A stretch of DNA of 64,000 nt from Tubiluchus corallicola (GCA_030141605.1 JAQGDQ010000306.1:62001-126000), one strand, 5' to 3'; shown: positions 25,501 to 52,200, counted from the stretch's first letter. Notes: generated by a model from the letters alone, not told the origin. A program made the numbers and translations.

Positions 25501-28500
25501 GTTAAAATGCAGCTGTCAGTAAATTCCGTGATTAAGTTTCATGTGATACAATGACTACAAATGAGTTTAAATATTTCGAAGATCGGGGTTCAGTTTTCAA
25601 TCGTTTTTCTTCCACCCAAAAAATTAAATAATGCTTAGCCCTCCTAAACCAAAGACTTTGTGAGGTTTATTATTTACAATCATGCGTCATTTGTGTATGA
25701 TTGGGCAAGGAACAACTATTTGTTGAAACATTGCTGCAGCTACTACACTGTTCTGTATGAAATTTTCAAAGACAAGTGCACAGCATTTTTGTGAACTTAA
25801 CTATATTCATATTTCAAGCAGTGTCTTTCTTTTTTGCTGTTGTCCTCTGATTGGTTTCCATGCACTTTAATTAGAAAACTCTGACTGTTTTAGGATGCCA
25901 AACTTATCAATGTTTCAGACAAAAATTCTTTTTTTCAGTGACCGAGATTGAGATAGATGATGTGCTTGATGTAGAGAATCCAATGGATAGTGTCAAAGTT
26001 GGCTTAGTAACGAATAACGATCAATTTATTCCACTGTGTGCTGTGCATATTCGAGCTAAATTGATTGACCTTGCCTCACAGGTTTGTCTATGAGCATGTA
26101 AGCGAGCTATAGTAATGGTACTTATGCACAACATGTTCATCAGTACCTATGCATTGTAATAAAGTGAAATAATGATATTGCCATCTGAATGTAGTCAAAG
26201 TTTGATCTACTTTTCGACTTAAACCTTTGACCTGATCCTAGATACAAACTTCTCAGTGGATTTAATATTTACTTAAATTTAAATAACAGTTTACTTAAAC
26301 ACTAAGATGCTAGTTAATGTAAGTGAGGCTTGTTTTTTACAACCTGGATAGGTAACCACCAGGAAAGCTGTTTCTGGGAAGTTTCAGTCCCCATACTGCC
26401 CCTTGATACCCCTTTGAGGATATCGTAAGCATGCAAACAAGGCTAAAACACTTCTGCCCATTCAGTGTCTCACCTTAGAGGAAAATAAAATACAATATAC
26501 AAAAACAGTGCCATATTTAAAAAATGTAGAATGCGTCATAGTTAATTAAACCACTTTGCAATCACAAAACAAGTTTATAAATTCACAAAGTGGCACACAA
26601 ATTTTCCACTTTACAGTATAACAGTGATTTTCTGTTTCTTTTGCTAGGTTGTTGTTTTCCAAGAGTACAAAAATGACAGCAAGTATCCAATAGAGGCGAA
26701 ATTTGTTTTTCCGCTTGTTGAGTTAGCAGCTGTTGTTGGATTTGAGGCTTTTATCAATGATAAGCACATTGTGGGAGAAGTGCAAGAGAAAGAAAAGGCC
26801 CACAAAGAGTATAGAGAAGCAGTTGCAGAGGGCCATGGTGCTTACCTCTTTGATCAAGAAACACCGGTGAGAACAATTTATTAGTTAACATCTCATCTTC
26901 CTGATAGTAACTGTTCATTTTAGGATCATTGGTAAATTCCGAAACAAGGATAAAGCATTTAACATGCCATTCACAGTACAAGAGAACATTGTAATAACAC
27001 TATAAAGATTTATTTTACATTCAATACATCAACCTTCTTCAAATGATAAGAACAAATTATATTAAAGACAGTTTGAAATGTTAAAACATTCTAAGTATCA
27101 GTACAGTACAACAATAGATATTGTTAATTTTTTATGTAAGCTCATTTACAAAAGGTTGAATTATAGCACAGCATAGAATGACAAAATGTAAGTTTTTAAC
27201 AGAATAAAAAAGGTATAACATACAATGATAAGTACTGTTAAACTATTCCAATGTGCCTGAAGAAAATGAGTTTAAAATTATGTTTGGAAATTAAATAAAC
27301 CACATGAGATAAAATTGTTCTTGAATCTCTCTGTTCTGCATTTAGGTAACGGGTATTTCAGATAGTGGTGAGCTCTATATCTATAAGTATGGGCATCTGA
27401 CAGTAGAGTATGGATTATATTATTAGGACTTTGAATTGATTATTTTACAAGAATTTTTGTGACAGTTAAATAAAGGTTGAAGATTTGCCAAAATTAGAGC
27501 ATTTGCATAGTGTTGATTTGTAACAAATTATTTTCAATTAGCATTTTTCAACAGTTTCTAACAAATCAATGAGATTTTGGAAGAGAGATGAGTACCATAC
27601 CTGACAAGCATATTCAACAACTGATCCAATGGTGGTGCAGTAACACCATTAAGAGATGCCCCATTTCTTTATAATTAGTAAATAATTAGTACAAAAAGTA
27701 AATTGTTTACTGGGTTTAGCATAAATTAAATGGACAAGGGTGTTCCATGTTAAAAGTTTAGCTACTGTACACCCAAAAGTTTAGCTGAATCAACTCTTTT
27801 TACCATCAAATGAGAGACATTAGTAGGGAAAATATCAGGAAGCCTAGCTATGACAGTCACAATCATTTTGATGAATTTAGAATATATTGAAATTTAGATT
27901 ATTAGCATTTGCCCATTGTAATGGCAATGTAATTACTTGATTAGCTGTTGTTTCAATTTTGAGATAGTCAGTAGTTAGTTCTTTGATGATGGTGGAAGAG
28001 GAAATAAGATATTTAATAAAATATTCGGAACTTGCATATATTCAAATTTTGTTAACAAAATGTTATGACCAGTGTGTTCAACAGCTTTTCGTAAATCTAA
28101 TAAAAAAACTGTAGAGGTACCACCTCTAGTGTCAACAGCTTTATGCAGTTGATACATTAAATAACTCAGAGTATGTATAGTGGAACCACCACAGATAAAT
28201 TTATATTGAGAATAACTTATTTGGTTACCAATTACCTGCCATAACCAATCAGAAACAAACTTTCCAAAATTTTGCAAAGTACCGGTGTATAGAGAAATAT
28301 GTCCCAGATCTTTTTCAAGTGATATAATGTCATTAGATTTTGGAATAAGTATAACATCTATGATGTAAAATGGCTGTAAATTAATTGTAAAACTGTTGAT
28401 TAATTAAAAAAATCTTGTTTAAGTTTTCACACAAGTGAATTAGTGGCTTACAAGGCTAAATTTTACCATCCCCACACTCAAGAAATTAGTTCGTGAAGCA

Positions 28501-31500
28501 GATTGGGATTAAGGTTAGGGTTAGAGTTATTGTATTTAAATTGTGTGTGAATTGTAAACTCCTTCCACTTACAATACACTGATACAGTTTTTGCTGTTAA
28601 AACTTCCGTTTCTGTTCATACTGTTTGTTTTCAGGATGTGTTTACTGTTAGCATTGGAAACTTGCCGCCTAAATGCCGAGCTGTGATCAAGATAACATAT
28701 ATTGCTGAACTTGGATTTGAAGCTGACCAGATAAGTTTTAGGATACCTGCCAACATAGCACCATGGCAGAGAAAAAATGCTCTTTCAACTGAAACACAGG
28801 TATTAAAATAATCCTACTGATATCGTCTGTTTCTGCTATGTGTAATTTCTTTTTATAACTATCTCATCATCTTGTCATTTGATTTTATTGTAGGGTGTGA
28901 CTGCTACAGTGGCTTCTTTCTTGGCGTGCCCAATCTCAATAATCGTAGGAATAGAAATGCCTTTTCTCATACAGAAATTAACATGCCCAACTCACATGAT
29001 TGAACATAAGGTATTTTTGTTGTTTTTAACATAATAAACTACATTATAAAATACTAGTGTTTATATTATTGCATGAAATTCTAAAAACTGTTATTGTAAA
29101 TTGCATTGCTAATAGCTGGTCATTAATTTTGAGTCATTTGCAAAGTTTGGCAGCTGCTTTATAATCTGTTCTTTTTTTCACATTTATTGACAGTTTGTGA
29201 CTCTCGTTCCATGTATGATACATCAACAAGTGATGCCTTAAACTGATATATATGTTGTTTTCATGTCGAAACACTTCTTCAATGACAAAATGTTCACTTC
29301 AGCAAACAATAACATAATGACGAGTTAAAGGTTTATACTTTACAGCACGCTTGGCCTATAAAGATGTATACGACATACTTTGATAGAATTGTACTTATAG
29401 ACGTGCAGTAGTAGCTTTAGGGTTGGCAACTGCTTTTGTCTGCCATCATCCCATTTACATTTGATTTGTGCTGTCCAAAGATCAGTAAGGCATAAATAGT
29501 TGAATATCTTCAGTTGAAATACAAAATAAATGCCATAGCACTAGCAGAGCTGCAGCCAACTCATAAATTATTTCATTTTTTGCCAAGGTTTAATAAATTT
29601 TCCACAGAATACAGCTAAAATACATCCTCGCACATTTACATTGTTTCCTATGAAAGGATTGTTTTGTTTGCTACATTTCGGTCAATACCATATTTTATTG
29701 GTCCAGATTATTAATTTACCATATACCATATACAGATCAGATGTCATTCTTACTGTCATATTTGTTACTGTTTTTTTACTTACATAGCGATCTGACACCA
29801 AGGCAGTAGTGTCAACAGCTGACAATAATGGCCTTGTTGATGGTTTTCATTTATTGATTTCTATTGCGGAGATACATATGCCTAGAATGTGGGTGGAAAA
29901 TTATCCCAATGAAGACCATCAGGTAATGAGCTGATTTCTTTGCAGAAAAAAATGTCTTTTGCTTAATAGCGTGCTCACAGTAATCTTTTCTTCAGGCAGT
30001 TTATTGAAAAACATGCTTAACTTGTTTCTATTTGCTTTTTTTGCTAAATTCACTTGGCATTTTTAGTTGGGAAATCATTGTGAAACTGTCAAAATAGCAT
30101 ATCTTTGCTTTTTCAAAATTTATATACAATTTAACCAGCTTTGTATGATCTTAACTTTTATGCCCAACATGCCATTTAACCTAAGCTACTACTTAGAACA
30201 ACAGTTCAAGCTTTCTGTCACAATCCATAACAATTTTTGTGGAACTGATTTTTTCCTGTAGAACCTAAATCCTAATAACACAATCAAAACAATGGCTGTT
30301 GTTGGTAACAACAGGTAGCATGTTGTTGTTATCAACAATAGGCATTGCTTTTGTTGCATAAGCTTTGTGAAAAGCATATTCTATTTTTTACCAATCACTT
30401 GCGTCATTTATCACCTCTGAATTTAAATTTTAAAATTATTTCTCTGTTTCTTTGTTGTTTTTATTGGAAAACTGCATTTTCATAAATTTATGCCTAAGCT
30501 GGTGTTTCCTTTTCAGGCGTGCATGTTAACATTTTTTCCGGAATTCGATGCTGAAGAAATTTCAACAGAGATACTGTTTTTGTTAGATATGTCTAACTCT
30601 ATGAAAGGTCAAGCAGCAACGGCTGCTAAGAAAGCTCTTCTTCTTGCTCTGCATCACCTACCCGACAATGTTATGTTTAACGTCGTAAAATTTGGCACTG
30701 GTAGGCAATTCTCGTCTTTTTATATAACCTGTTGAATAAAAGCATTTCATAAAAAAGTGATTGGGAAAACTCAGCACTTTTGTATTTTCTTGCAGGTTTT
30801 TCGGAATTGTTTCCAACTAGTGTTGAAAAATGTAAGGATACACTAAAGTTAGCCATACATTTTGTGCAAAATGCTTCTCCAGATCTCGGAAATTCTGAGC
30901 TGCTACGTCCATTGTTGTCATACTTTTTGCTGCATCCTGAAGATGGCTCACTCAGAAATGTGTTTCTAATTACTGATGGCTATGTGAACAACGAGCCTGC
31001 GGTTAGAAATTTAGTGAGAGAGAATTCGACACACACGCGATTGTTTGTTTTAGGCGTTGGGTATGAATACACTTTTTAACTTAATTGTTCTGTTTCTTTT
31101 GTTTTTGGCACAATATAAATCTGTACCTTCTTTTGTTTTCTGAGCTTTAGTAATAACTGCAATTATTTTTCATTGAAATAAGAGTATGAAATTTGTTGTT
31201 ATATATACTTATATCACGTCAGTCCTGGCTATGTTTGCTGCAAATATTAGATTCTTTGTATATTCAGTTCACAGGAACTTCAAATGAATTCAAAACTTCA
31301 AGTAAACACAATTTGTAGCGCTTTGTACATAAATGTTTGTCACTTGTAGCTCTACCACAAACAGACATTTTTGTCTGTCATTGGCACATGTTGGACGTGG
31401 ATGGTACGAGTACTTCGACTTGAAAACAAAGTCTCGATGGGAACATAAGATTATATCTTTCTATGACAAGGCAAAACAACCCAGCTTATCATCTGTGCGT

Positions 31501-34500
31501 GTGGACTGGCAGGTGTTTGATGATTTTGCACCACCTCCACAGCAGGCACCCCAACAGATACTTTCACTTTTCAATGGAAGTAGGCAAATAGTGTATGGAT
31601 TCGTAAACAATTGTAACCTGGTAAGAAAAAAAATTGAAAATAACGTTAATTAATTCTTTTTTCATTGCTTTATATTATTTCTGCCTGGAAGTTACCCGGC
31701 TTCAATTAGCTTATACTTTATACCATATAAACTGATTAGAGTTGGTGAGATGTACCTAAAGATCATTTGGAAAAAAATTGGCATGTATTGTGTGTTTTAG
31801 TACATGTTGTTTTGCCTATTGTATAACTATAAAAGCCTCTTTTTTTAAGGTTTAAAATGCATTTAAAGAAATTACTTAAAAAACCATGTGCTACTCGTAG
31901 TCATTGTTTTATTGGTGCATCTTAAATTGCCTTCTCATTAGCTATTTTGGTAAGATTTGTATTTTTCGTAATATTTTATTTGATCAGATTTCAATAACAT
32001 AATGCTCCAGACAAGTATCTTGCAGCACTCACTGCAGTGTAACTTGTAGTATATATCTGATATTTTTAAATACAGGCTACACTGAAAGCCGAGATTGGCG
32101 GCAAAGAAGTGTCAACAGTTGTTTCGACAACTGATCTAGCACAGACTACAGACAAGGTAGGCACATGAGGCTCAATTTTTTTTTAATGTTTTCGTTGCAT
32201 TTTTATTCTGTAATAGTGTAAAGCTGGAGTGATTAATAAAAATGCAAAATCTATTAAAAAATTTTGGAAACTGTAGGTACTTCACCAGCTGACAGCTCGT
32301 GCATTAATCCGAGACTGGGAGGAAGGTAGCTTACATGGAGATAGCATTCAGCATCAGGTAGGTACAGTCTCTGTATTTGCTTTATACTGTTATGTGGATA
32401 ACACTATTCTTTTACTAAAAGCAGGAAGCAACACTTATAAGTGATGAAATCAGACAAATCTGATGAAAAATTGGCAGTCATTTTCTGTGATATTTAGAGC
32501 TAAACTGAACGATCTCTCAATCCGTAACTCATTTTGTTCTATTGTCTAAGTTAAGATTTTGTTACCAATCTTAACATGAAGTGCACCTAGCAATAGTGCA
32601 GCATTGAACTTCAAATATTTAGCAGAAATTTTATATCCACATCACATGCATGTTTGTGACTGTTAAATTGAAACAGTGTTACTGTGCACCTCTCACAAAG
32701 AAATACAAAAACCCAGCAATTTTTAACTTTGCATTTTCTAAATCACTTTCTCTTTGCAATTTTATCAAAAAATGTAAATATTCCATCTGCAGCAAATGTT
32801 GTACATTGTAATAAATTTTTATTTAATAGGCGTTAAAGCAAAAACAACAGTCTTACATTATCGACTTGAGCAAAAAGTACTCTGTTGTCACCCAACTTAC
32901 AAGTTTTATTGCTGTAGAAGAACGAAAACCAGTAAGTATTGATGATTTCAGTGCAAACACTTTAGCAAGCCTATTTAATGCGTTATTTGTAAAGGATTAG
33001 ATTTCAGATCATCAGTAGTAGATAAAACTTGCAAAACAATGTAACAATGTTCATTTTACAATTGAAGTTTAGCCATTACATTGTTAGCAATTTTTGGTGT
33101 TTGTAAAAAGTGGTAAATATAAATGCCCATTCTTAAAGAAAATTTTTAAGTCAGTTAACTTTTTCTTGAAGTCATTCAATTTTTCAGGAAACATTCTGGA
33201 AAAGATTTCGCCTTTTGCTTCTGTGATTTGAATAGAAAATGTTTTATGGTATGATTTCATGCCTTCTGCAGTGCTAACAGTCAAGTCCATCCCTCTTTTA
33301 TGATCTGCACATATTTAATAAGTGAGGTCCTGTCAGTCAAGTGTCATGTTTGCTACATGCAGGCCATTATGTTGCTTGTTTTTAAGTAAGCTATTATATT
33401 GTTTTGTCTTTTGTTTTAGGATGATACAGCTCTAATTTCAACACCGAGCATAGAAGAAATTGTGTCAAGTGTCGATGTTGACGTGCTGCAGCTGGATAGT
33501 AAAGTGCATTACAGTTAGTATTATTTAATAAACTGAAAGTGGCTGCAAGAATAATGAGCTTTCTGTATTTTTAGTGCAAGTTCGAGAAATTGAAATCATG
33601 TTCATTTATCATCATTAGAGGCAAGTGGTTCAATTACAGCACAGCATTAAATTACAAAATATAAAATTTTTTGAAAGAATGAGCAAGGTAGAACATACAG
33701 CAATAAGCACTATTACACTGTTACAAGATACGTGAAGAAAATAAATTAAAATGATCTAACCTTATGTTTGGAAATTAAATAAATCATGTGAGATAAAACT
33801 GGTCTTGAACCTGTCTGTTCTGCAACTAGGTTAGGGGTATTTCATATGGTGGCGAGTACTACATCTATAAGTATGGGCATCTGGCAATAGAATGTGCATT
33901 ATATTATTAGGATTTTGAATTGATAAGAACAACTTATTGCAGGAATTTTTATGATGGTTTAGTAAAGGTTGAAAGTTGGCCAAAATTAGAACATTTACAT
34001 AATTTCCACTGAGCATTTTTGAATAGTTTCAAACAATTCGAAGAGATTTTGGAAGAGAGATGGGTGTTATACCTGAGAAACGTATTCAACAACTGGCCTA
34101 AATACACTAAGTGCAGTACATTTTTATATCATTAGGAGATCTCCCAGATCTGTTCATTAGTCGCAAAAGATAAATTGTTTACTGGCTTTAACATAAATTG
34201 AATGGACTTGGCTGTTCCATGTTAATTCTTTAGCTATTTGTGCACCTAAATCTTTAACTGAATCAATTCTTTTTACTCTTCAAATTACCTTCAAATCTTT
34301 CCCATTCTGTTGTGTAGAAATTTTTATATTAACCCTTTTCCACCAGAAATGTACCGCTTCTGTTGATAACTAAATTGTATTTTTAACTACTTTGCTAGAT
34401 AGGTGGGTGTATGCTGTATTAAGTTTGCACATGAAAAATTGTAATAAGAAAATCGCCACAAAGAATGTTTTCAGTGAATTATGTTACTTTCCTTAATTAG

Positions 34501-37191
34501 GTATCTAAAGCTAATTAAGTAAATTTTTTTCCACAACAATGGTAAATTTCAAAGTCAGTTAGTGTGCATCATAAAAATATTTTGCATTTGTATACTTTGT
34601 CAATTTTGTTTTTATTTATTTATTTTCCAAAATGTGCTTCTTCAAGCGCATCTCTGCAGAAACCTAAATACTACTAAAAATGTTTTTTGTGGAATCCTTT
34701 TTTGGCAAATTTTGTAGTTCCTTGCAGAGTAAAGTCAACAAAGGAAACCATTTTGCTGAATCAGGTCAACAAATTCTCACCTTATACTTTTGAAATTTGT
34801 AATTTTTCCAAAAAGCAATGGAAATTTATTTAGTTTTTCGTATTATTTTCACCACTCTGTTTCCAACAATAAATAGGGCCACTTGCTACAATTGCCCAGA
34901 AAGGGCAACAAAGTTTTTTAGATCGTCTGAGGATCAATTAGTCCATGTTATTTTAGTAAAATTCCTCTTCCAGTAAAGTTAAACATCTGACGAGAATTAA
35001 GACAAGTCGTTTGATATATTGCGATACGCATATGGCAGTAAAATTGTTGAGAAAGTAGTGAAAACCAGTAATAAATAATATGTAGAGATAAGCGATGGCA
35101 GATGTTTTACGTACTACTGATTTTCTAGTAGGAAATGTGTTTATATGGCATTTAGACAGCAAGAAGCTTCAGTTTCCAAAAAATAGCAAGTGATCTTTCT
35201 TGTACAACATAATCACTGTATTAGTCGTCAAGCCATTTGTGTGACTATGCATTCTACAAACTCAGATCAAACTCCTGTTAGTGAATATTACGAAATTATT
35301 TTGGCAAATATATAAAAATGGAGTCTGTATTACATGTCTGGGTTGTATTTAGACTTCAAAATGATCACTTCTTTTAAAATTATGAAAAATCTTGTAATAC
35401 AGATACTGTTCATTTGATTATTGTCAACAAGAAGGGGAGATTTTAAAGTATTAACTACTATAGACATTTTTGTTTGCTTTGAAGCAGAGAAGCAAAGGGC
35501 AAAGGACTCATTGACATGCTACGACATCGATGACATGGAGTTGGAAGAAGAGAGATATATAGAATGTGATGAGTAGGCCATTCAAAATACATTATTTGTG
35601 CAAAATTTACCAATAAAATGTTTAAACACTTAATATTTGTCATTATATACAAATTAGTGTTGCAACATATTAATTTTTTAGCGATTCAGTTGCACGTAAA
35701 ATGTTGTGTCTTGTACATTGTTATGTTGAGAGTAAGTGAAAAATATCTGTGACCACATATTTGGAGATTCACAAAACTAAAGTACAATTGGTAGTCAGGA
35801 AAATACACACACACTTCCGAATTTTGACCCGTAAGGTTTTGTTCTGGTTTTATACATTAATTTGTTAGGGTGGGTGGATAGACAACATCTTTCATTAGGT
35901 GCAAAAATAAATTAGTCTACTGTATCAGGCATGTTGTAACTGTTTGAAGGCAGCACTATGAATTCTGTTATGATTTTGGTGTTTTGATGTAATTTTGTAA
36001 TAACTTTTAATATAGTTAAATATACACAATGTTTTTAAATTTTAAGTTTAATAGTTTTTTGCTGTCAGCTCAATACTTATGAGGCGAGTAGCTTTACAGA
36101 ACAAGCAGAAGTTATCAAGCAAGAAGTTTTAGAATAGTATTAGTACTTTGTAAGGCACTTAATTTATATTGTTACAAATTTGTAATAGAATATGCTCAAA
36201 TCAACCCAGCACATCCAAAAAATAAGCTAGTAAAAACAGTCACATTTAACAGGAAAGTACTGAAAAACTACATACCTTTAAGTTACAGGCTTTAAAACAT
36301 TATCAATTAAATCGTTTTTGAAAGAATGTTGCTTCTGCATTGAGTATCGTTATACACAGTTGTAGGTGAAATGTTTGAATAAGTTTGATGATTTCGTAAA
36401 TGGTTGATTAGGGATGATTGCTAGCGAGAACCAAAGTTGAAAGCATTGTGTTTCAAAAGATAATTGTAGAAGTGCAATTTACTAAAGATTAAATGTTGTT
36501 ACAATCTCATAAAACGTATTTTTAATACTTCTACTATTTTTCTAACTCAGATGTGAGGAAGTGTCTTCAGATTATTCGCCAACATCGCCCAGTTTTGCAT
36601 ATGCTTCACCTGCATCAAGATCAACGTCGAGGTCACGAAGCTTACGAAGGTCAGGAAGTCGTGACAAAGCTATGGATTTTATTGAAATCTCACTGTGAGT
36701 AACAATTTTGTTGCTTAGTATGTGCTCTGGACTGAAAACTAGTTGTTGAAAGTATCGCATAGTTTTCAAGTGTACTGTAGTTAAATGGTAAAGGCTAGCA
36801 AGGTGCCGTATTTTCTATTAAAAACAATGCTGCAAATTTTGCTACATTTAGCTCAAATTTGTACATTTGCTAATTTTGCTAAACTTTGCTACATTTAAAA
36901 CTTTTGCCAGCATAATGAACAAAAATAGTGAGAAACATTTATTTCATGTTCATGCACTTTACGAAAAAAACCTGCATTACCTTCCCGAGTAGGTTGATGC
37001 TTAAGGAAAACACTTCTTCTTGGTACATTGCATCTCCCTACATGCTTTACTCTGGCTGAGTATTGCCTTTATAAGTAGTTTCATTACTGACCTTTCAAAC
37101 ACTTTCACACTTTCGTCTGCAAAACATTATAGTATGACAGCAGAGTTGGGCACCAAAAAACTACTCAGGCATTTACAATTGAACATCTTAA

Positions 37192-37238
<47 letters not shown>

Positions 37239-40200
37239 CGTCATCATCATTATTATCACCATCGATTTCCAACACCAGGAACAACAACAAAATAACATTT
37301 TAATAGATTTGGTTTCTATTCTTAAAAATATTAATAATACAAAGATTACAGATAAATCGTGGATGTTGTAACAAAAGAATTATGTTTTATTTGCTAGTAA
37401 ACAGATATTTTGCACCCCATTACAGGTTCCTTTTTCAGTGTAAGCACAACAATATGCACCACCTTGAAATGCATAATTACTGAATTACCCTAACAAAATG
37501 CAGAAAATACAGAAACATTATTAGCACCCTATAATCGGCTGCAAAATATCTGTTTATTAGCAAATGAACCATAATTCTTTTATTATAACATACATGATTC
37601 CGTCTGTAACCTTTGTTTATTAACAAAAACAATAACAACAACATCTGCAATGGTTGCATTATAACTGGTTTTTTTTGTATCAGCAGTGACGGTTTTTGTT
37701 ATCATGCGACATCAGACAAAGGTGTTCCGGCAAGCAATAGTGATGAAGACATGGGGTTTGATCTATTTAATGGAGACACAAATGTTCGTCTGAAAGGTAA
37801 ATCCTTCTCACCCAAGAAAGTTACTAAAGCAAATGTTAAGCGTGGTGTGCAACAAATGACATATGTTGGGAGGTCCTTGGCATCTAAGTCTTCTGAACAG
37901 CCAGACGAACCAAAAGAAATGGAAGAGAGCAGTGATGATGATGATATGGGATTTGGTCTTTTTGATGATGGACCACCAGTTTTACGCCCACATCATGGAC
38001 CACCAGTTTCACGCCCACATCAGCAACGAGTTACCAAAGTTGTTTCAGAAGTAAAAAGTTTTGAGGAAATGGTGAAAGAAGCACATGATAAAAAAGGAAA
38101 ACAGAAACAGTTACAAGCGAAAGGTCTCTACAGTTACAGATACGGATTACCTTCTAAAGCATCTGTTCAAAGTCTATGCCTTCCTACTTCTTCTTCTAAA
38201 GCAACCCATGGTGCACAAGCTCTACCTCCAAAATTTGGAGGATCTCCCGGACTCGGAGGACTATTTTCTTCTCAACCTGCTCCTGCAAGAGCTGAAACTG
38301 CTGTACCTCCACCTCATGAGAGTTTGCATTCTGGCTATGCTGTTTCCTCTACAAGAGCTCCAGGTGCTGCTTCAGATATAAGAGGATTTTCATTTCATCC
38401 TGTAGGGTTCACTGGGTTAATGGCTGAAAGGCCTTTCACTCAGCAGCATTCTTTTGTTTCATCCCAAATGCCAATTGTTAATTCTAGCACAGAGGTACCT
38501 TTTGCTGCAGCAATGCAGTACGTATCATCATCTCTACCCCCGCCATGTCGTCAAGCCACACGTAGTGCTGATAGAGTGCCTCCGCCTCCACCTCCACCGT
38601 GTCGTCAGCCCCCACCAAGTGCTGAAAGAGTGCCTTTGCCTCCACTCCCACTACATGCCAGCCAATCTGTCGAAATTCTCCTTCAATCTGGCGGAAGTGA
38701 CATTCTTGATCAACAGACAGCAGTTAAAGCAGGTAATTTTTGCATGTTAGTACCTTGCTGTTTTCACAGCTTTTAACATTATTTTTTTATGAACTCTAGA
38801 TACTATGTTCTTGTTATTCTTCTAATACAGGTTTTATAATCTAATATTGTGTTTGCATGAAACAAAAACCTCTTTTAGATTTTTTGGATAAATGATTCCC
38901 CACAACAACTATAGTCCATGAGGTAGACCCAGAATTTGTGAATTGGTACCGTCTGGGGTGGCAAATTGTAGTGCTGTTTACTTGAAAGGTAAATGTCTGT
39001 AGCTGAAGAAACTTTGAAGCCAAGTTCTGAGTGGTAGCTTAGTGGTAGTAATCATCATCCCAGCTTCGAAGATATGACCATGACTGGGACCAAAAATTGT
39101 GGATAAGAAAAATATAAACGACAATATTTTTTTGAAACACTGGCTCAGTTATTGGAAATTGAAACTCATACCTGCACAACATTGATAATCACAATGATTA
39201 TTAAAATGACATTTTGCAAAATTTCATTAGAAGTTCAGGGTATTGTTGACAGAAATTATCCTATATGGTCCAATTGCAGGCAGGTTTTTTTTACTTACAT
39301 ATTTGATGTATGTTTTTTTTACTTTTGCAGACCTTAATTATACGCATTCACACAAGGAATAATAATTGTTGAACTTTAAATGACACCAAGTCATTAAAGG
39401 TCCTATTCTCTCTGTAAGTAGGATGCTTAAGTTTCCTTGGTGCCATCCCATAGGGCAGGGGTGTGCAAATTATTTGACTAGCCGGTACCACATTAAACTT
39501 TCAAGCAGTTTCTGCGGGCTGCATGCAGTTTGGTAAAGGAGCCAAAAACAGTAGCACCTAATAACGACTTTTTTGCATTTGATCTTCGCACATCATTACT
39601 AATACACTTAAGAAAACTATTTTAGAAGTTATTCAAATTTACATTAAAAACCATAGATTTCAAGTTTCAAGTTAAATAGTGGTAATTTTATTAAAATGCA
39701 TATTAGTATAATGTGTAACTTAGTCTGTGCAGTACAGTGCATATTAATCTGTTTTGAAACACTCGATGTTCTTCAATCCTGTTTTTCTTATCCATGTTTC
39801 TGATCTATAAAAGAACACTACACCTGATGAAACGATGAAACAGCCACTGATTGAAGTGTGCACTACTTTGTGCACTAAGCAGAAACTAAAATCTGGGAAT
39901 CCCCAATATCAGGGGTGACCACACTTTTTCAGCTTGCTGGCTACTTACAAATTGATCTGCCCAGTTGTCTTCTTGGTCATAGTAAGTAGATCATTTTGAC
40001 CTGGTTAGATCATTTTGACCTGGTTATTTTATAATTTTATTTATAATTTATTTTGTAAAATAACCAAGTCAAAATGATCTACCTGCTATGACCAAGAAGA
40101 CGACTGGGCCAATCAACAAAGCAACCATTTCAAATTTGACTTCAAAGTTTTTTTATCTAGCAGACCTACCATTCAAGAAAACAGCATTACAATTTGCTAT

Positions 40201-43200
40201 ATCAGACGGTACAAAATCATGTTGCAGCTGCGATATCTTAATATCTTTAACAAAATCTTAATATGATGCTGTTAAACATCTTGGTCATCCTACTCTATTT
40301 TTTCAAAAGAGGCTTAAATTTTTTGCTGTGCAACTCAGTGTAGACATCTGATTTTGCATTACACTCAAACTTCTCCATGTTACCCACTTTGAGATTCAAA
40401 AAAAATTGGCGTTATGCAAGTTTGGCATTATAATGAGGTGCATTAATACTTGCATGCCTGTGCTAATATAGATATTTTGTTTTGCCAAAATTTTGGATGT
40501 TAAGAGATGTTGGCATTTGAAGCTAGAACGAGGTTTGACTATGTTATTCAAAAACGTTTATAGTATACACTATAAAATTTTAAACTCTGCCTATTTTTTG
40601 CATATAACATGTTAACTAACTTGTAACTGAAAAAAATCACAGTATTGCCTTAGCATTTGCTTTATATTTAGAAATTTAGTTTTTAAACGAATCTTTGAAT
40701 CTTGAGTGGGCAAAGCCCCACCACAAAGGCGTGGTAACAGGGTACCCAACATGTTTATCAATTTCTTTTCACACGACATATGCTCATATTTTTCATTTGT
40801 GTGATAGTGTATTAAAGTACTTATTCCTGGCATTAAAATTTATTGACTTATATATTTATGAATTCATTTATATAATTAGATCATCATTTTTAAGTTTGTT
40901 CTCTAGCGCATTTATTTCTCTTAACAACTTCTTATATTTAGTCTGTTTTAGTCTCGGATTAAAGGCTTATAATTTTATTGAGATGTGTGTGCGTGTTTTT
41001 TTTTTGTTAAGGAAGCTCTAGGAGAATGAGAAAACTACCTTTGGCGAAATGTTCAGGTCAGCAAAATTAATAATTGGTGAGAACTTTGTTCCCTCCATGG
41101 CACACGGAATAGAGATAATTGTGAACATGATCCACAATGTTTACCCATGCTAAGTTCTTCCTGTTTTATAAACTGCAACTTTTAGTCTTGTAAATGGTTA
41201 AATAAAAAAGCGACGATGACCCACTGTTTGGATAAGTGGCTTCCTTGTCCCATTCTTAGAGTAGCCCAGATATTTCAAACTGGCACAGATTTATCTCTTT
41301 ACCTGTTGTGCAAAAATCCTTGGTAAATGGGCAGTTATGTACATAGAGTTCACTGAGTGTCAAGTAAGTCATGGTTATTTTTTGCTTAGTAGGGATTCTG
41401 TGACCTTTTGTTAGTTTAGTAAGATCATGTGAGTCATGTTAATTCTTTAAAGACTATGTGCATCTTAAGTCTGTAAGAACCTCATGAACATGCCTGAGCA
41501 TACTTGGCAGTTTCTAGTGGCCTCACAGTTCTAGGTTCTAAAGGATCATATTGTTCATGACAGATCCCTTGGCAGTGGATAATTACCTGACGGTACTCTT
41601 AGTGCATGTTTACTTGTTCTAGTTGTGTAATGAATGTAATTGACATGTGTAGGGTAGAGTTTTAAAGCTGAAGTGTGGTGAAATAGTCAGTAGTCTTGCA
41701 TGCTACTGGATGAGACAAGTCCTTTGTTATTGGTGATACAAGCAAACTTTTATAAACCAATATTGATTTTTAGTCAGATTTTTGCCACTGATGATGGAGT
41801 TAAGCAAACAAATACTCCTTAATAAGTTATAGCTTTCTTGTCTTAAAGCTGAAAGATGAGTTTCTAAGCAATTATCGGCCTATGAATCCACCATAACCTG
41901 TATTTGTAATCGTTGGTTTATGCAGATCTTTTCCAGATTTGTTTTTATGCAGAATTTTTCCATTTTGTTTTACAACTTGTGCTCATTGTGTTTTTGTCAT
42001 TTAGGGTTATCTTAATTGAAAGTAATACTATTTGTTTTAGGGAAAATTTCATCAAAGAAAAAGGAAAAACAAAGACGAGTAGTTCCTCACTCACTAAGAG
42101 AGAGTAAGTCTATAATATCATTTGTGAATAAGCATTTGTTTTATACATTTCACTAGAAAGGGTATTTGTAACATTCAGGTGATGAAATTCTTTAAGCCGA
42201 ACTGGGTCTCGAACTTGGGCGGGGCAACATAGGTCGAGATGGAGTGCCGAATGAGTCTGTGACCATTAATGTTAAAGAGCAGCAATATTTGTTTAAGTTT
42301 TAAGGCAGTTACAAGCGCAGGAGGCGTCGGTCCTTCCAGTATGGGCCAATGGTGATACAGTGTGAACGGAAACAGTGATCACAACAAAGTATAAATAAGT
42401 AAACTGTTTGCCATGGGTTTAACATTTTAATTTGCATAATCAGTCAAAAACGATAAACACAAAAACTCAAAACTTACACAAGCACAGCAGGGTACCCTCC
42501 ATTTAATATCAGTCTGCTAGTGTTTTACTTAGGCGCGATCCCTGTCAAGTTCTGGAGTCCATATACTAAGCTGGCTGGAATCACTTTGCTAACAACTGGG
42601 CTCGTTGGCAACGACAACTACACCAATGTTCCACTCGGTTGACTGGCGAGACTACAGTACAATGACAGACCACCAGGATGCTTCTGACGACCGCTTCTTC
42701 TAATGAGTTAGGTACCAAGCTTTTAGAATTTGTAGAAGTCTGCTCGTGCCGTTTTGGTTGAAAACTGTACCATCATGGAAGCATACTGATCTTAGAAGAA
42801 TGTCTTTCGTTAAATACCAGACATATGGTTTGCATCTACTCAACTGACTACCCAAGATAATGACTGGTAGTGTGAACAATTTGCATAGCTAATTGCAAGT
42901 CATCAAGTTGATTGCAAAAGTATCCAAAGCAACGTCTTGTCAGCCAACGCCCCGACAAAGACAAAATCAGTAGGCCTTTTAGCTGTGTCGGCCATTTAGC
43001 AATTATATCAGTAACCTCGTGAAAAACGGGCACTTCTCAATCACACCTGTCATGACCCAGTTAATCATGCAGTCACGGCAGTACTATAGGTATGACATTG
43101 TCAAGCCTAAATTTGGTCCAAAAGTTAAACTGTAACATTTCTTTGTTGAACTCACAATAGATGGTGCCACCAGTTTATAATGTTTACCTAATTCAGTTAA

Positions 43201-46200
43201 TTAGTTAGTAATAATAGGTTCAATACAATACATTTAGATATAGCTAATAGTGCTTTCAAAAGCCTCGTAAATGTGTTATTACTGTTAAATGGCTATTCGT
43301 TTTAATCTGTGGAATAATACCGTGACAGTATTAATACTGTCAAATCTTCAGATAAAGTTTTTACTCGATTATACTTGGATATAAAAATAATCAAATAAAT
43401 AGAAACTATTAAATTTTAAATTTTAAGTGATGTAAGTAACTTACACAAAATATTTAGTTATTTAAGCACTTTTATGATTACACCAGTCATCAGAAATTGT
43501 TGCATTATTATGTAAAAATGTGGTAAAATCATTTTTTGCAGATTTACATCAAAATTCACCATTTCATCTTACTTTTGTTGTGGTATTTTCTCATGTGCTT
43601 TTTCCTCTTACTTATAGGAATATCGCCATTGTTTTATAATGGAAAAAGTTATCCAAAATATACAGTTAAAAGTTGACTGACGACGGTGAAATCTAAAAAT
43701 CACTACTTTTAGTCTATGTGCAGTCACTCTTTCCATTTGGGATCGATTATTCAGCAATTATGTTTTTTGTCATGACTTTATCATATTGAAATTAAATTTT
43801 AAATAATTAGCTTTTTCTAGTTTTTAGAATGGTTTTTCCAAGGAATTTCTGTCAGAAGCAGAATAGACTGATCTTTGTACCTTTAATTGAATTATTGCTC
43901 GAGTTATGTTCTAATGCAGCACACGAAAAATGAATTTCTCAGGATAATAAATTTGATTTGAAAGGTGGTAGCTTTGGACGCAGTGAAGATTCAATGGCAG
44001 TTCATGATACGAGTGAAATGACTAGATATGCACCTGAAATGGCAATGAGACGTCAAGCCTCAAGATCAGTGAGAAAAGGTAACACTTTACACTAGTAATA
44101 CAGAATGCTTGCCAAATCCTATATTACAGATTGCTAACTAAATCCTATCAAAATATTTGTTTATTTTACTTTGCACCAAGTTCGTATTTCCAACAAACCA
44201 AAATTTACTTAAGGTTTATTTAAGATCTTGCATTACTGAGATTATGCCCTGACACTTTTTCTTAATAGCGCCAAAAGTGTGCAAACTATTGTCCCAAGAT
44301 GCACAGAGAAGAACCCTGTGTTGGGACTGGGGAACGATGGTTTCATGTTAAGGGGTCACAGGCAGTGGGCATCAGTTACTTTTTTCAACTGAACAGCATC
44401 TCCTTCTAAGTCATTAAATTGAAAACTTTTTAACAGTTATTTAGGTATTGTTGGGTAGATGTCCACCTGGTTAGCTGAGCACCTCTGGTTTCAAAGAGCC
44501 GGTATTCCTTAAGGGCCCAAGGTCGAATACAAGTTAAGAATAGTACACAGTCAGTTTCATTACCAACAGTTGTTAATATCTAAATCTGTGACAAAACTTT
44601 CCAGTTTTGACTTGCCGTAATATTCGGTATGTGCTGCTTAATAGACTTACTTTGGGACCGAAGTGTTTTGACCCAATTAACCAACTGAACCTATTAACCT
44701 ATGGATGTAGTATTACTGGTATAAAGTATGTGTCATCAGCTTAATATGCACTGCAAAGGTTTTTAATGAATTTCAAAAACGAAGTAATGCCTAAATTCCT
44801 TTGTACAGTTAAAGTTCCCTTTTCTCAAACTGACGAGAGCAAGTTTGATGAAAAAACTGCAAAAATGGCTGTTTATGGATGTTTTTTCGTTTTATTACTA
44901 CAAATGACTGGGATTCGAAAGAACCATCAATGAGAAGACCTTTCGTTTTGATATATGGATTGCCAAGAATCGTGCAGTCATTAGAGATTTAGTCCCTAAA
45001 ACCAGGAATAAAATTTCTAACTGGTTGGGAAAATTTTGATGCCTCTAAATGTCTCCATTTCCTGATCTGCTAGCTTTGTTAAAATGCATATTTTGCCATT
45101 GTTAGTCTTGCTGGTCCTACAAAAAGCTTAATTATTTTATTTTTTTAGCATTTAATCTCTTCGTTAATATAATTTATTTGAACATCTACATTTTTGCAAC
45201 AATTTTTCTTTGATAGATAGAAAAATTTGCTTAACTTTATTTGGAATTTGCTTTTCGTAGAGGTGGTTACATTAAGTGTGATACTTATGGCTCAGGTAAG
45301 TCAATTAAGTTTTGTTGCATGCAGTTTTCCTCGTTTAACTCTCACCAACACTTAATCATCATTATACAACAGTGTTTTTACAAATTATGTATTAACAATA
45401 TTCAAAAGTTTAGCTATGGGCTTTAAAACATTAACACCTTCTATCAACCAATTTCTACGGTTTATTAAAAATTGCAGGAGCATCATAGTCATCCACTTTT
45501 TGCCATCTAAAAAAGCTTGAGTGTGCCCAAATTTTGTCAGCTAATTTTTGAGACCAAGCAATTATTTTTATTTGCTTAATGATGCACGCACCACTAATTG
45601 CCAGCAAAAATTTCATTTAGTAAAAAAGTTTGTAAAAAGTCTGCAGCAGTTTATGACAATTTTAGTCGGCATTTGTCTTAAAAAAATAGTAATTTTTTGT
45701 ATAGTTACCTTTATAACAAAAAGGCAAGGCATTTCTTAATACTCGTAGCAAATTTGTAGCTTTTGTATAAACATCAGGTACTGAAAACTTAGCTAAGCTT
45801 ACTGAGTTTGGTAAGATAGCCCAGTTTATAATAGGCATGAATAACTGATTATGTGCTAAGGGTAGGCAATTATTCATTAAGGTGGTGATTATCATGATCG
45901 TGACTACATCACTGATTCAGGAGAAGGCACTGTGCATATAGTGGAAGTAGACGCCCAAGGAAAAGATGGTGAGGAAGAACCAATGGCTGAAAGCTTAGAG
46001 GGGATTAAGTTTCCACTTTGTTCAACCAGTACTAGTGATTATAGAGTGATAAATCTAACACCTGTGTTGCCACAACTCCTTGCTTTGCAAAAGAATGTAA
46101 GTTAAACTATTTATGCTCTCATGAATTTGCTACATAAAAGAGATGAGCTTCCTGTATCTTTCTGTGTTTTACTAAGGCAGTTCATTTTGGTAAATGTGAC

Positions 46201-49200
46201 CTCATTTTCAGCTACAATGATTAATTTAATTTTGCCTGAATTTCTCTTCGTTGACATATTTCATGTTTTTGTAGTCAAAAGTACAACCATCAGCATAATT
46301 AGTCCATTCTGTCCCATTTCCTGACTGTAGCAGCTCTTGCATTTATGTAATGTTATTTCTGTAATTAAGTCAGGGTTTTAATTTAGCTTTACAAATCCCA
46401 GCCTCTATTAAGTAAAAGAAAATTGTATTATGCAATGTCTAAAATCCTGAAACTTTATTCTTAGATGGTAAATTGCACTTTAATCAGTGAACCTTAAACA
46501 GTTAGTTATTTCTGACTTTCTTAATTTTTATTCTAAACATCAAGTAAGTTTTCAGCAAAATGTCTGCGAACAAAAAATCTTTTACTCTTCTCGTATCGTA
46601 GCTGAACTTCGACATTCAGTGAGTATCTCCTTTATCTCATTTTCTATTTATACCTAAATTTAAAAATCCTGAAGTATTGTTCAATGTCTAAAATCCAAAT
46701 CCTGAAACTTTATTCTTAGATGGTAAATTGCACTTTAATCAGTGAACCTTAAACAGTTAGTTATTTCTGACTGTCTTAATTTTTTATTCTAAAAATCAAG
46801 TAAGTTTTCAGCAAAATGTCTGCGAACAAAAAATCTTTTACTCTTCTCATATCGTAGCTGAACTTCGACGTTCAGTGAGTATCTCCTGTATCTCATTTTC
46901 TATTTATACCGCTATTTATACAGAGAATCATTGTAAGTTAAAGTTATGATTTGCTTATGAAAAATCAAAATTTTGTGATCTGGTGTTTCTTGTTTTTAAC
47001 AGTGTTAAAATATTGTTAGTGTACATTTGAGCAATGCCTTTCCTCCTTTCTGACAAAATGACTCACAGAGGATCTGATAATCTTGAAAGCTGATGAGCCT
47101 ATCCAGCAATATTACTAGTCAATGTTAATCTCTACCTTCTTGTCAAATGTCTTTGCTCACTACGTGGTTGATATGTTAAGTTTTGTGTTCTACATTTCTG
47201 TACATTTTAAGTTTATTTTTAAGTTGACTTTGTTAGCTGCATACAGTATTATTCAGGTAAGTATTGTACCTTTTCGTTTTTTACATCAAGATGTCATCAT
47301 TCACTTCAATAGCATACCAGCTTCTGTTCAAATTCTTGAAGCTTATCTTATGTAGTGCTCATTCTACAGTGCCTGATGTATCTGTCTACTGCCATTTCTT
47401 CATCTGTGTGCATTGTATGATGACTTTTATTATGGAGTTTTTAAGATTTTGGAGATCTGTGCAAATTCAAATATGTATGTGATCTTTGTGTGAGAATCCA
47501 CAAAGTTGTTTCCACTAATATAGTCGTAATGTGCTATTTTTACATGCTATTCAGTTGGGCTTTCAGCTTTTTGATGGTGCGGCTTCTTAACTGCAGTTTC
47601 TGAGATGTTCGCTTTTGGAAGACTCGAGTTTTACTTTCTAATGCTTCCACCAATTTTATTGTCAAACTGACATGGGTATTGCAGGATGGTAGTTGGGAAT
47701 TCTCTCAGAAACTAGACCAATTGATACAAATCAACAGTGAGCTGTGCATTTCTCAGATGAAAGAAGCTGGTGCATTCTCTTTGGGTAAGCGTGTGTCACA
47801 TTTGTGCCACTGTCATTGTACCCTTGACATTGTTTGTTTCATTTGTCAAAAAACAGACAACATCATTTCAAAAACTGTTTTTTTAGTTAGTTGCTTGTCT
47901 TTAGCTTTTTCTCCAATTTATTTCATTGTTCATCTATGTTATTGTGACATGTTTTGAAAGAGCCCTTATTCTTTTGTTTAGGTTCAGTGATAACCAGTGC
48001 CTTGCTAAATATGCTGTGTACAATGATAGTAATAACCAGAATAGCTAATTACATACCTGTCATGTGGAGCATTGGTACGATGAATGGAACTTTGTCTGCA
48101 ACTGCTTTCAAGGAGTTTATGTCCATAGTGAGAAATGAGTTATACAGTGATATCCGAAGTTTTTACTTGAAACAGGGTGTGGATAGTCAAGTAAGTAGGA
48201 AAACAATAGAGGACTAACAAAAAAGACCACTTTTACCCACTTTTACTATCAATGTTAATAACTTTCGAACACACACCTTTGATCTACGACTATTGTACCA
48301 GTTGTTCAGGGTAACAATCACACATTTTTTTAATTTTCTATACACTTCGGCTCTCGCTAACCCAGTGTATCCAGCATTTAACAGCAGGGCTTGCTTATTA
48401 TCGTATACATTAATTTTGGTGGTATATATATATATATATATGTACAGTAGGCGCCGCTTAATAAACTCACTTTGGGACCGACATGTTTTGACCCAGTTGA
48501 CATCAAACATATTGGTCTATTGCTCCGCCCGCGCTATAACATAAGCACGCTCAGCAGCATTCTGGACAACAACTGTCTAAGCTAAGCTAAACTAAACTAA
48601 ACAACATGACTGTCACATCTAATGTCTAATCAGCAGATAAACTGATTGCGTTTTTTCATAAACACAAATTTGCAAAGCAGCAGCTATTTTTACACGAAAT
48701 TAACACTTCAAGTAACCAAAGAATGACTTTTTAATTTAAACAGAATGTAGAGACGAAGTTTCAAAGCACTACAAAATACAGCAACATAAGTATAATAAAG
48801 AAGCTAAGCCAGTTAGCCTTGCTTTACAATGAATGAGCCACAGAAATATTAAGTCTCTCTTGCCTTTAAACATACGAACATCAAGTCTGCGATGTATTTT
48901 TCTATATTAACTGATTGTGTGCTCGTCTGCAAGATTTATTCAGTTTTTGTATTTTTCCGTTTGTCAGGCTACGGAAATGGAACAAATTTGACTGTTCCAT
49001 TCCATAGACAACCCTTATATTGAATGCCCGAGCTACATAAGTCCCAATGGCATCTTTTAACCATGATTATAACCAGAAAAATAGCGTAAAATTAGCTAGT
49101 ATTACATTGATGTATAATATAAGTTTTGACCGCATTTGAATTAATTTTGACAGTGAAAATCTCATTGAGGTTTATAAAAACTGGCCAGAAAAGAAAACAT

Positions 49201-52200
49201 TTTGTTTTGTCCTTATTTAAAGTTAATCAAATAGCTGTTTTTATCTAACTTGCGAAGCCATAAGCTAAACTAAACTGCGTATTTTCTTGATTGCGAAATG
49301 GTGTAATCAGCAACTCATAGACGTAAGCATTGTGCATTTCTTCCTACAAAGGAAACTAGACTATATATTTCCACTAATTCATTTGCAATTTCAATTGACA
49401 ATAATAAAATCTAGAACCAAGCCAATATTTGTCCTAACTAATGAAAAGTTGAGCATTTTTCATAACAGCATTAGATGCAGCTGTAGCTAAATGTCCTGAA
49501 CGTACCTGCATTAATTAAGCTCTGCAAGGGTGCGAAATAACCTGCACGCTGATTGGGCAGTCAACGAAAATGATTGACATTATGTTAGACGTCAATTAAC
49601 TGACTGAACCTATTAACCGATTTGTGCAGTATTACTGCTATAGAAGTATGAGTCATCAGTTTACTATGCACTGCAAAGGCTATTAATCAACTTTAGAAAT
49701 GAAATAATGCCTAAATTCCCTTGTGCAGTTAAAAATTAGAAAAAAATATTTTATAATATTAATTTATATAAGTGAATTAACAATAAATTAAAAAGTATAT
49801 TTTTCTAAATCACACAAGTCTGTTTATTTGCAAAAATTACAAAAATTCCTTCAAAGTTGGCTACTTCATTTTCTCATGAGTAATGGCTTGATCTCAATAT
49901 CGAATAAGTGATGTGGTGTTTGCAGGCAAAAACACAACTTTGTTTCAATGATGCATTGACTACATGGGCAGTACAGCTGTCTACCAGTAAAATGATATTT
50001 CTCTTTAAGCTCACATCCCATTTCACTAACCATTCATTAAACAATACAGCCGTCATCCAAGCATTCGAGTTTGCACAGTAATCTACCGGTAATGTTGCAA
50101 CACCTTTAAATCACCTGGGATTCTTGCTTACCAATCACCAGCAGTTTTACCTTTTTTCCTGACATGCTTGCACAACATAGCACTGTCACACGTTCTTTTG
50201 AAATCTTTCACCTCTTTGCTTTTTCGTTCCCAAATAAGTGTGCTCAGGCAAAGCTCTAAAATAAAGTTTCATCCGCATTATAAATGTTGTCGGGTGAATA
50301 CCCTGCAATAATTTTTGGCCACACTTCTTCTACCCAATTTTCAGCAGCTGGAAACATCAGCATCCTTTTACTCACCACGTGTACGTTTGTATACGATGTT
50401 TTCATGCTTTCTCCGTCGCTGAAACCATCCATCTGTTGCAACAAAATCTTCCTTTCCCATTTTCTTTGCCAAATCTTGTGCTTTTTGTCACATTAAAGGA
50501 GCATTCACTCGAGCATCTTTTTCTTTTGCGTTTGTAAACCACACTTTTAACACTGACTCCACTTCACAGTCTTTTCCTGTGCGTCTCCTCTTAGATGCTA
50601 GCTAGATCCTCATTTTGGCTTGGCGACTGCTCAATTGTTTTTTCAATATTCTGCCGAGATTTTTTTTGGAAATTTTTAACTGCACTGCAGCACACCTCTG
50701 CAAGTTTATTGGAGGTTCTTTGGAAGTTTATTGCACTGCTCTGAAATTTTCAGTTTTTCCTTAACTGTTAGGTCTTTATGCTTATGCTCCATTTTTCAAA
50801 CTTCTTAACTCTATGCCCTTATTTGCTGTAAGCCACAACGAATACTGGCTGATTACTGTACCTGCATCTTTGACTTTTAACTCATTAAGCCTGAAAGCAT
50901 GATTTGCAACTAGAGCACAAAAGGAAACTGCTAGGCAGGTGATTAAATGTTTAGCTTCCAGAAATTCTTTGGGTAACGAGGTTAATTGCAGTGGGCGAGC
51001 AAGTAACAGATTCAAAGCAAAATCGCTATGCTAGCGTATGATTTACAATCAAAACGGTAGTTAACATGATTGTTTCTACATATATAATGCACAAAAGGGA
51101 TATATATATAATGCACAAAAGGGAAGTAAAGATGACATAAAAGTAGGAAAGACTGTTTGGGCACCTACAAATGTCTTATTTTAAGTATGTGAAGGAAAAA
51201 TATTGAGTCAATTACCAATAGTTTTTATGTATATTTGAATAGAAGCGGCCCGTTCCAGGCGTTTTTGAGTCCATTAAGCGATTGAATCTATTAACCGTGA
51301 GTCTATTAAGTGGTGACTATGGTATATATATATATATATTTGTGTGTGTGTGTGTGTGTGTGTGTGTGGATATATAACCAACGAGGCTACTACCCCGACG
51401 ACGGCACCATTCTCGACAATTCTGGCTATTTTTTGCAAAACTTATACCTCTTATTTCTAGAGATCCGGAATGGGCCACGGGTGGTGCTGGTAATGATTGA
51501 ATAGCCCATTCAATGGTGGGTGTAATAGTCATATTTAGATTTCACGGGAGGGCCACGGCATCCAGTGATGGGCATTTTCCCCCGGGCCCCAACCAAACAA
51601 ATTTTGCAAAAAACTGCTCAACCACCCTCTAGAAAAACTCAATTTGTGCAACTGTTTTGGCATGTTGGGAACAAATAAGCACACTCGCAGAAAGAGAACG
51701 AAACGGTCTACAAAATGTTGGAGGTTTTGTTGCGAGAGTGGTCCACTAGACGCAACGGGAAGCTGCACGCTATTTGGAACATCCATTGTCTTTGCGTTTG
51801 AGAAATTTTGCGGCTGCTCCAGGCATTGTTATCACCTGCCGTTCTACTGTGTTATAGATTTGACATTTAATTAAGTTGTGTTAGCCTATTATCATGTGAG
51901 AGTAGGAAAACAAAACTATGTAGAATATCCGTGCATTATTGATCATTGGTATTATAGCATTTATAGCACTAAGAGCATTTATTATAACACACAGTTTCGA
52001 CTTTGTGCAAAATGTTCTGAATGGTTTCACTGTGCTACTGTATTGTTGGTGCAGGTGTTGTAGGTGTCATGACCATTGGCGCCATCAGCATCATGATCAC
52101 CGTGTGATGTGGTGGGTGTTGTGTGGTGTGGTAGTGGTAGTGGTGGTATGCTGTGGGCGTTGTGCTGTCGATGGTCTGGTGTGATGTGCTGTGGATGGTG

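Follow-up and report, generated by a model that had tools for sequence, protein, structure and literature searches.

In Tubiluchus corallicola, the linker of the vault enzyme PARP4 encodes, in mid-protein, an exact copy of the last ten residues of the ribosomal stalk tail together with a second, degenerate copy. Among the PARP4 matches listed, the same motif recurs downstream of the vWA region in five phyla, and pieces of several other host proteins are found at the same place. What matters is the linker as a whole, with a Pol II CTD-type heptad one exon upstream of the stalk-tail copies, and this the original prediction had missed. We lean, with modest confidence, towards regarding the stalk-tail peptides as baits in a decoy loop for pathogen proteins that target the ribosomal stalk. 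The function of the vault has been open for decades and the fast-evolving linker of PARP4 had no molecular reading; a ten-residue mimic that recurs in fungi and, among animals, in sponges, molluscs, annelids, echinoderms, amphioxus, and fish allows a direct test of the bait model.

The PARP4 gene and its two stalk-tail copies

The window, the whole stretch of 64,000 nucleotides analysed here, contains a gene with the domain order BRCT-PARP-VIT-vWA of PARP4 (vPARP, clade 5), as found by Pfam and tblastn (Table 1). Collinear tblastn matches from 221 PARP4-like proteins bear out its original assignment to PARP4; the gene is a PARP4, not a P protein. By translation, residues that fit the catalytic H-Y-E triad of the family are present, and MIDAS-type residues are found in the vWA domain. 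A putative C-terminal MVP-interacting domain is indicated by tblastn matches of homologue C-termini at 47.7 and 52.8 kb, in two single exons without a Pfam match. In one alignment, conservation of the MVP residues that bind PARP4 was limited to vertebrates (PMC12280208), so that vault binding in T. corallicola is at most putative. The small linker exons at 33.4-36.5 kb and 38.7-47.7 kb are not fixable from DNA alone, and the residue number of the motif is therefore not given; read run X1 was DNA-like, with contigs crossing introns and no splice joints, and run X2 yielded a single 31-base repeat piece.

Several other elements lie in or near the gene. PARP4 introns hold a broken LINE-type element with endonuclease and RT matches (16956-19968, + strand) and high-depth repeats at 39.2-40.4, 44.2-44.8, and 48.0-49.2 kb. 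Near the PARP4 start, on the opposite strand, an ORF beginning MGSSASAAQ (10136-10423, - strand; no Pfam match) resembles a myristoylated globin first exon, and convergent with PARP4 are proline-rich exons (57600-61750, - strand; no Pfam match for three single ORFs) that resemble a WAVE/WASF gene.

Table 1. Features of the PARP4 gene, with positions counted from the first nucleotide of the window.
Feature	Position	Strand	Basis
PARP4 (vault PARP) gene, first BRCT exon to last homologous exon	11907..52891, approximate	+	Collinear tblastn matches from 221 PARP4-like proteins
BRCT exon	13316..13510	+	tblastn; Pfam BRCT weak, E 0.001-0.005, under cut-off
PARP catalytic exons	24058..25427	+	Pfam PARP E 1.2e-05 (one exon); H (LFHAS), Y (IYFAD), E (EDEYAIY) by translation
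VIT domain exons	26648..28799	+	Pfam VIT E 3.6e-22; 72-78% identity to best PARP4 matches
vWA domain exons, MIDAS-type DMSNS and TDG	30517..31059	+	Pfam VWA_3; translations
Last conserved ITIH-like region exon, TSFIAVEE anchor; variable linker begins 3' of it	32830..32931	+	tblastn and translation
Linker exon with one Pol II CTD-type heptad (YSPTSPS, 36573-36593), then an Arg/Ser-rich stretch	36551..36694	+	Predicted
Large low-complexity linker exon, Pro/Ser-rich, 349 codons	37684..38732	+	Predicted from DNA; probable counterpart of human exon 30 by position and size
Stalk-tail copy 1, degenerate, SDEDMGFDLFN	37739..37771	+	Translation; score 41 of 57
Stalk-tail copy 2, EESSDDDDMGFGLFD, last 10 residues exact, then DGPP	37922..37966	+	Translation, Pfam, PDB search; score 57 of 57
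Putative C-terminal helical domain exon (MVP-interacting region)	47682..47786	+	17 tblastn matches from homologue C-termini, best E 4e-06
Last coding exon, stop codon included	52742..52891	+	13 tblastn matches, best E 1.5e-06; translation to stop

A splice model trained on the PARP4 gene itself scored the large linker exon at 9.1 for the acceptor and 11.1 for the donor, and its 349 open codons have a chance of 2e-11 at the intron stop rate. G+C by codon position is 0.60/0.50/0.24, with an overall value of 0.45 vs 0.33 in introns, and homology-supported PARP4 exons flank it on the same strand at 32.8 kb and at 47.7/52.8 kb. Judged by place and size, it is probably the positional counterpart of human exon 30 (PMC4038475). 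The predicted exon upstream, which bears the heptad, scored 5.2 for the acceptor and only 0.9 for the donor in the local splice model; it is phase-compatible with the next exon and has no Pfam match.

The two peptides were confirmed by translation to lie in one reading frame, as originally proposed; their spacing, put at about 60 residues, was nearly right, the Met codons being 195 nt or 65 residues apart. The description of both as copies of DDDMGFGLFD is exact for the last ten residues of copy 2, which follow an E-rich lead-in and equal the end of the ribosomal stalk tail, but not for copy 1, in which G is changed to D within FGLF and N replaces the last D. The likeness to the stalk tail was corroborated by the maximal score of copy 2 and by a PDB search, in which all 26 sequences retrieved were P0, P1, or P2. 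Pfam Ribosomal_60s matched the exon with an E of 6e-07 and 30.3 bits (cut-off 28.1), covering only positions 61-88 of the 88 in the profile; the N-terminal dimerisation or rRNA-binding domain of stalk P proteins is absent there. More than 250 codons of the same exon follow the tail, which is therefore internal and not a free C-terminus.

A six-frame scan of the 64 kb window confined the MGF.LF core to these two places. Among 20000 local shuffles of the exon, none scored at least 52 and four scored at least 42 against DDDMGFGLFD, for which the copies score 57 and 41. Between the exons at 32.8 and 47.7 kb, copy 2 is the sole place matched in tblastn by the 221 homologues, and both of the two matches into the 1 kb exon fall on it. 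At three shared residues copies 1 and 2 differ only at silent sites, which indicates that the amino acids of the copies have outlasted the DNA.

Recurrence of the stalk tail and of other host fragments

The homologue set combined the best 120 of 155 and the best 120 of 1018 matches into 221 distinct proteins, isoforms included, from which 67 fragments or rows without an anchor were removed to leave 154 PARP4s in which the anchor lies beyond residue 600 and is followed by 300 residues or more. With a score of at least 36 (maximum 57 against DDDMGFGLFD) as the threshold, the motif was found downstream of the anchor, after the vWA region, in 33 of these 154 PARP4s from five phyla among the matches listed, and 121 of the 154 fell below threshold. 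Before the anchor and in reversed sequence the count was 0, and local shuffles gave a mean of 0.08 and a maximum of 1 in 50 rounds. The true letter order of the core ranked first of 180 permutations, the 142 orders sharing at most two positions with it averaging 0.24. Chance composition was thus rejected, as shuffles, reversal, and core permutations do not yield the motif.

Positions outside the selection also track the stalk tail: S occupies position -1 in 22/41 cases and E position -2 in 28/41. The motifs keep the Asp at the end and continue with further acids (D at +1 in 24/41 vs a background of 5.7%; D/E fractions of 0.73, 0.49, and 0.61 at +1 to +3). All 38 homologue matches are internal, the nearest being 37 residues from the end of its record, and the motif lies 48-1459 residues from the anchor. 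The surrounding sequence is unrelated between PARP4s, so that the proposal of a conserved motif within diverging flanks, surveyed in the 154 PARP4s and in VIT-vWA proteins, held. Grouping by 80% core identity gave 58 clusters, 20 of them positive and 9 mixed. Parsimony on a FastTree of the core required 26 changes for the 33 positives (shuffled labels: mean 30.2, 17/1000 as low), a count that is undirected and separates neither gain from loss nor a single origin from repeated capture. As far as sequence can tell, the motif is kept or remade repeatedly amid unrelated flanks.

By group, and among the matches listed, the motif is present in sponges (2/8), molluscs (14/50), annelids/nemerteans (1/2), echinoderms (4/13), amphioxus (3/3), ray-finned fish (8/43), and unnamed sources (1/3), and was not found in tetrapods (0/19), cartilaginous fish (0/6), cnidarians (0/6), or hemichordates (0/1). 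The exact 10-mer occurs in an echinoderm, in T. corallicola, and in 9/22 fungal-type proteins. Degenerate forms are many, such as DEMGFDLFGSDDE in the sponge protein P0145 and DDFGFNLFDD in oysters. Two stalk-like copies at a score of at least 30 are carried by 6 of the 154 (P0097, P0054, P0084, P0167, P0197, and P0217), and P0097, from Cololabis, repeats the pattern of the window gene, with D in the core of its first copy and a near exact second copy. A few of these proteins already bear the PF00428 tag in databases.

The motif is not limited to PARP4. When the motif region was compared by phmmer with 1.84 billion representatives, three matches were obtained, one of which, P0223, is a VIT-vWA tail with two copies; the other two, the repeat proteins P0222 and P0224, lack the motif and were rejected as noise. 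A search with P0223 retrieved 21 VIT-vWA proteins, 15 from named fungi and none with a PARP domain. With P0223 included, 17 of 22 fungal-type proteins have the motif, in two or three copies in eight, and one (P0227) has CTD heptads there instead; as the set was found by a motif-bearing query, these numbers show existence and are meaningless as frequencies. In a fold model of P0232 (mean pLDDT 77.7), residues 601-756 with all three copies have a pLDDT below 50 between well-modelled blocks, which is weak evidence of disorder from a 28-sequence alignment and a fungal stand-in for the window protein. An ESM Atlas search with P0232 returned VIT-vWA clusters only. One cluster near it is 43% viral, with Nucleocytoviricota the commonest, and giant viruses may carry the VIT-vWA scaffold.

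Other host fragments share the linker. Pol II CTD heptads are found in 38 of the 154 PARP4 linkers among the matches listed, compared with 0 before the anchor and a mean of 1.8 in shuffles; 12 of these proteins combine them with the stalk tail, and heptad arrays occur in P0139, P0220, and P0091. Among the best 120 of 1018 matches, an additional host-type Pfam family is annotated in 73 rows: ubiquitin 34, actin 31, Hsp70 11, 14-3-3 9, synaptobrevin 5, EF-hand 5, and others 13, in a tally transcribed by hand from the search output that counts isoforms and congeners. In 12 PARP4s scanned, all inserts fell within the linker, most of them incomplete. The fragments taken up by PARP4 linkers include the actin N-terminus, ubiquitin, half of 14-3-3, the substrate-binding part of Hsp70, a SNARE motif, and FG repeats. 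In the sponge P0145, a span of 350 residues holds ubiquitin, then an actin piece, a stalk-like tail, and finally a SNARE motif, and the linkers of P0145, P0202, P0139, and P0137 concatenate host fragments including Hsp70 profile positions 380-514, the second half of 14-3-3, and WH2. The actin piece spans only about 70 of 410 profile positions and therefore cannot act as actin. Of 13 pattern-matched ubiquitin inserts with the canonical GG end (34 rows bear the Pfam label), ten have Pro next. A Pro after the GG of ubiquitin would slow or resist host deubiquitinases, and toxins, effectors, and viral enzymes commonly attack the donor proteins of the linker fragments.

A proposed bait loop and competing readings

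The gathering of non-functional host pieces at one probably exposed, fast-changing site suggests baits or decoys, and the recurrence of unrelated host fragments at a single scaffold site, varying among relatives, is what marks an integrated decoy. The decoy idea of the original prediction, which concerned the stalk tail, gains support from the other host fragments in the linker. Positive selection in PARP4 is limited to exon 30 in primates and other vertebrates. This exon encodes the stretch, predicted to be disordered, that joins the ITIH-like region to the MVP-interacting domain, and it has been proposed that hosts and pathogens interact there or that viruses cleave or modify it (PMC4038475, PMC10450202). 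In ITIH4, a bait loop and a MIDAS site trap proteases (PMC7793589); a C-terminal bundle, separated by a long loop, is predicted to rest on the vWA domain (PMC10539598); and TEP1, the other vault enzyme, is an NADase of an antiphage defence family (bioRxiv 2026.05.01.722283). These four observations together argue for the bait reading.

Under the bait reading, a stalk-seeking effector, such as a ribosome-inactivating protein or a viral or bacterial factor, would bind, cleave, or modify the copy. The MIDAS-bearing vWA domain might then hold the attacker, much as ITIH4 retains a protease once its bait has been cut, or engagement of the bait might release the C-terminal bundle, and the output of PARP4 could be ADP-ribosylation or sequestration in the vault. 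We know of no pathogen partner of the PARP4 linker inserts. Copy 2 is likely the working bait and copy 1 likely a drifting or re-aimed duplicate; Ala at the two positions altered in copy 1 abolished SLT-1 binding (PMC3280276).

Several observations bear against the bait reading. The last Asp of the tail matters for ricin A and SLT-1 binding (PMC6162817, PMC3280276, PMC6822507): removal of Asp115 lowered ricin A binding over 20-fold (PMC6162817), and this residue is hydrogen-bonded to Arg235 (PMC6822507). As the genuine tail ends in a free C-terminus, binding by an internal copy may be poor. The affinity of single tails is low, at 13 uM (PMC3280276) or 196 uM (PMC6162817), and ribosomes far outnumber PARP4, which makes simple titration implausible and calls for a signalling or trapping step. 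That 121 of the 154 PARP4s, including all 19 tetrapods among the matches listed, lack a stalk tail above threshold also counts against it.

A wider version of the bait reading is possible and is put forward tentatively. Intracellular VIT-vWA proteins (PARP4, VWA5A-like, and fungal) could form an old family of tripwire sensors with a swappable mimic linker, in which the vWA domain would grip the attacker and, in animals, the attacker would undergo ADP-ribosylation or be enclosed in the vault. The mimics would then be, with the same tentativeness, the stalk tail, Pol II CTD, actin loop, SNARE, ubiquitin, Hsp70, 14-3-3, and FG repeats. If this is true, the vault gains a concrete immune job, and, if the bait model holds, the inserts of each species are a record of the host machines that its pathogens attack.

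It is doubtful that the linker serves instead as a host adaptor array whose fragments recruit the normal partners of their donors to the vault or a stress condensate, independently of any pathogen. In its favour, these pieces are interaction surfaces, vault cargo is heterogeneous (PMC13100048), and Perina et al. read the 14-3-3, actin, and ubiquitin additions in PARP4-like proteins as signalling and cytoskeletal links (PMC4245714). However, the rapid turnover between near relatives, seen in the mixed clusters, and positive selection in the vertebrate exon (PMC4038475) fit conflict better than housekeeping, and the truncated actin piece is no substitute for actin.

Docking of eEF1A, eEF2, ABCE1, or GCN2 by the stalk tail as substrates or cargo of PARP4, with a role in elongation or stress-response regulation, is unlikely. 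Retention of all ten residues in copy 2, the presence of the H-Y-E residues, and the enclosure of 80S ribosomes by about 8% of Dictyostelium vaults (PMC13100048) are compatible with it, but a housekeeping site would be expected to be steadier than 26 tree changes and no positive among the 19 tetrapods indicate, and the heptads and the SNARE, actin, and ubiquitin pieces at the same place are left unexplained. The original suggestion that eEF2 is docked as a PARP substrate, in the manner of diphtheria toxin, is weakened by the fungal VIT-vWA carriers, which have no PARP domain, and by the many PARP4s below threshold, and is the less likely one; PARP-specific substrate docking was rejected as the sole explanation.

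Convergent acidic-aromatic short motifs are exemplified by adaptor-ear and eEF1B-type acidic motifs. That the PARP4 motif is of this kind, or a neutral relic of an old gene capture with incidental likeness to the stalk, is quite improbable. The linker is acid-rich, and the many degenerate forms, copy 1 among them, would agree with such an origin; against it stand the failure of shuffles, reversal, and permutations to reproduce the motif, the agreement of unselected flanking positions with the stalk tail, the exact 10-mers in several carriers, and the persistence of amino acids over DNA between the two copies. An autoinhibitory latch, with the motif folding back on the VIT-vWA body or the PARP domain, would suit its restriction to the linker of one structural family in animals and fungi, but it is most improbable given the absence of the motif from most family members, the variable anchor distance, and, more weakly, the unplaced copies in the modelled P0232. 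Finally, outside the motif the exon lacks homology to other PARP4s, and its small neighbours are only predicted. Even so, in view of the open exon with its coding bias and strong splice sites, the missing P-protein N-terminal domain, and the corresponding motif found at this place in 33 further PARP4s among the matches listed, the pseudogene was rejected, and it is next to inconceivable that the ORF is an artefact, either a piece of a P-protein pseudogene or a chance intron frame outside PARP4.

Relation to known systems

The 14-3-3, actin, and ubiquitin additions, the rapid evolution of the linker, and the guess at viral cleavage are already known separately (PMC4245714, PMC4038475, PMC10450202). 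In a literature weighted to open journals and to main texts without supplements, no published report was found of a stalk tail in PARP4 or VIT-vWA proteins, of CTD heptads in PARP4, or of the linker as a host-mimic array. The PARP4-like proteins with 14-3-3, actin, and ubiquitin belong to the same family and have three of the same inserts; section 3.1.2 of that article names no stalk tail, CTD heptads, SNARE or Hsp70 pieces, and no decoy role (PMC4245714).

The human exon 30 linker is alike in being the largest exon, predicted disordered, and placed between the ITIH-like body and the MVP-interacting domain; it differs in that the cited parts of PMC4038475 and PMC10450202 name no host-mimic motif and that the 19 tetrapod proteins among the matches listed are without the stalk tail. 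Daugherty et al. favoured viral proteins bound directly by the diversifying PARP4 surface (PMC4038475). ITIH4 shares with PARP4 the VIT-vWA architecture and a MIDAS site, and its engaged bait lets the vWA domain trap the attacker, a step that for PARP4 is suggested by analogy; in contrast, ITIH4 is secreted, traps host proteases, has no PARP domain, and uses as bait a cleavable loop that is not a copy of a host protein (PMC7793589). NSPA is likewise a non-ribosomal protein with internal stretches seen by anti-P antibodies, but it has only four-residue likenesses, an autoimmune cross-reaction, and no full conserved tail (PMC2150977). The ribosomal P0/P1/P2 tail shares its last ten residues exactly with copy 2 (PMC3280276, PMC6162817). 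Copy 2 differs from it in being internal and in lacking a stalk dimerisation or rRNA-binding domain.

In the integrated decoys of plant NLR receptors, pieces of effector targets are repeatedly fused into an immune protein at a fixed position and vary among species. The PARP4 linker is alike in that host pieces are fused at a fixed position and vary among species, and differs in having a VIT-vWA scaffold with no NB-ARC/NACHT or LRR, its effector and output being hypothetical. If the bait reading is true, integrated decoys extend to an animal and fungal enzyme scaffold.
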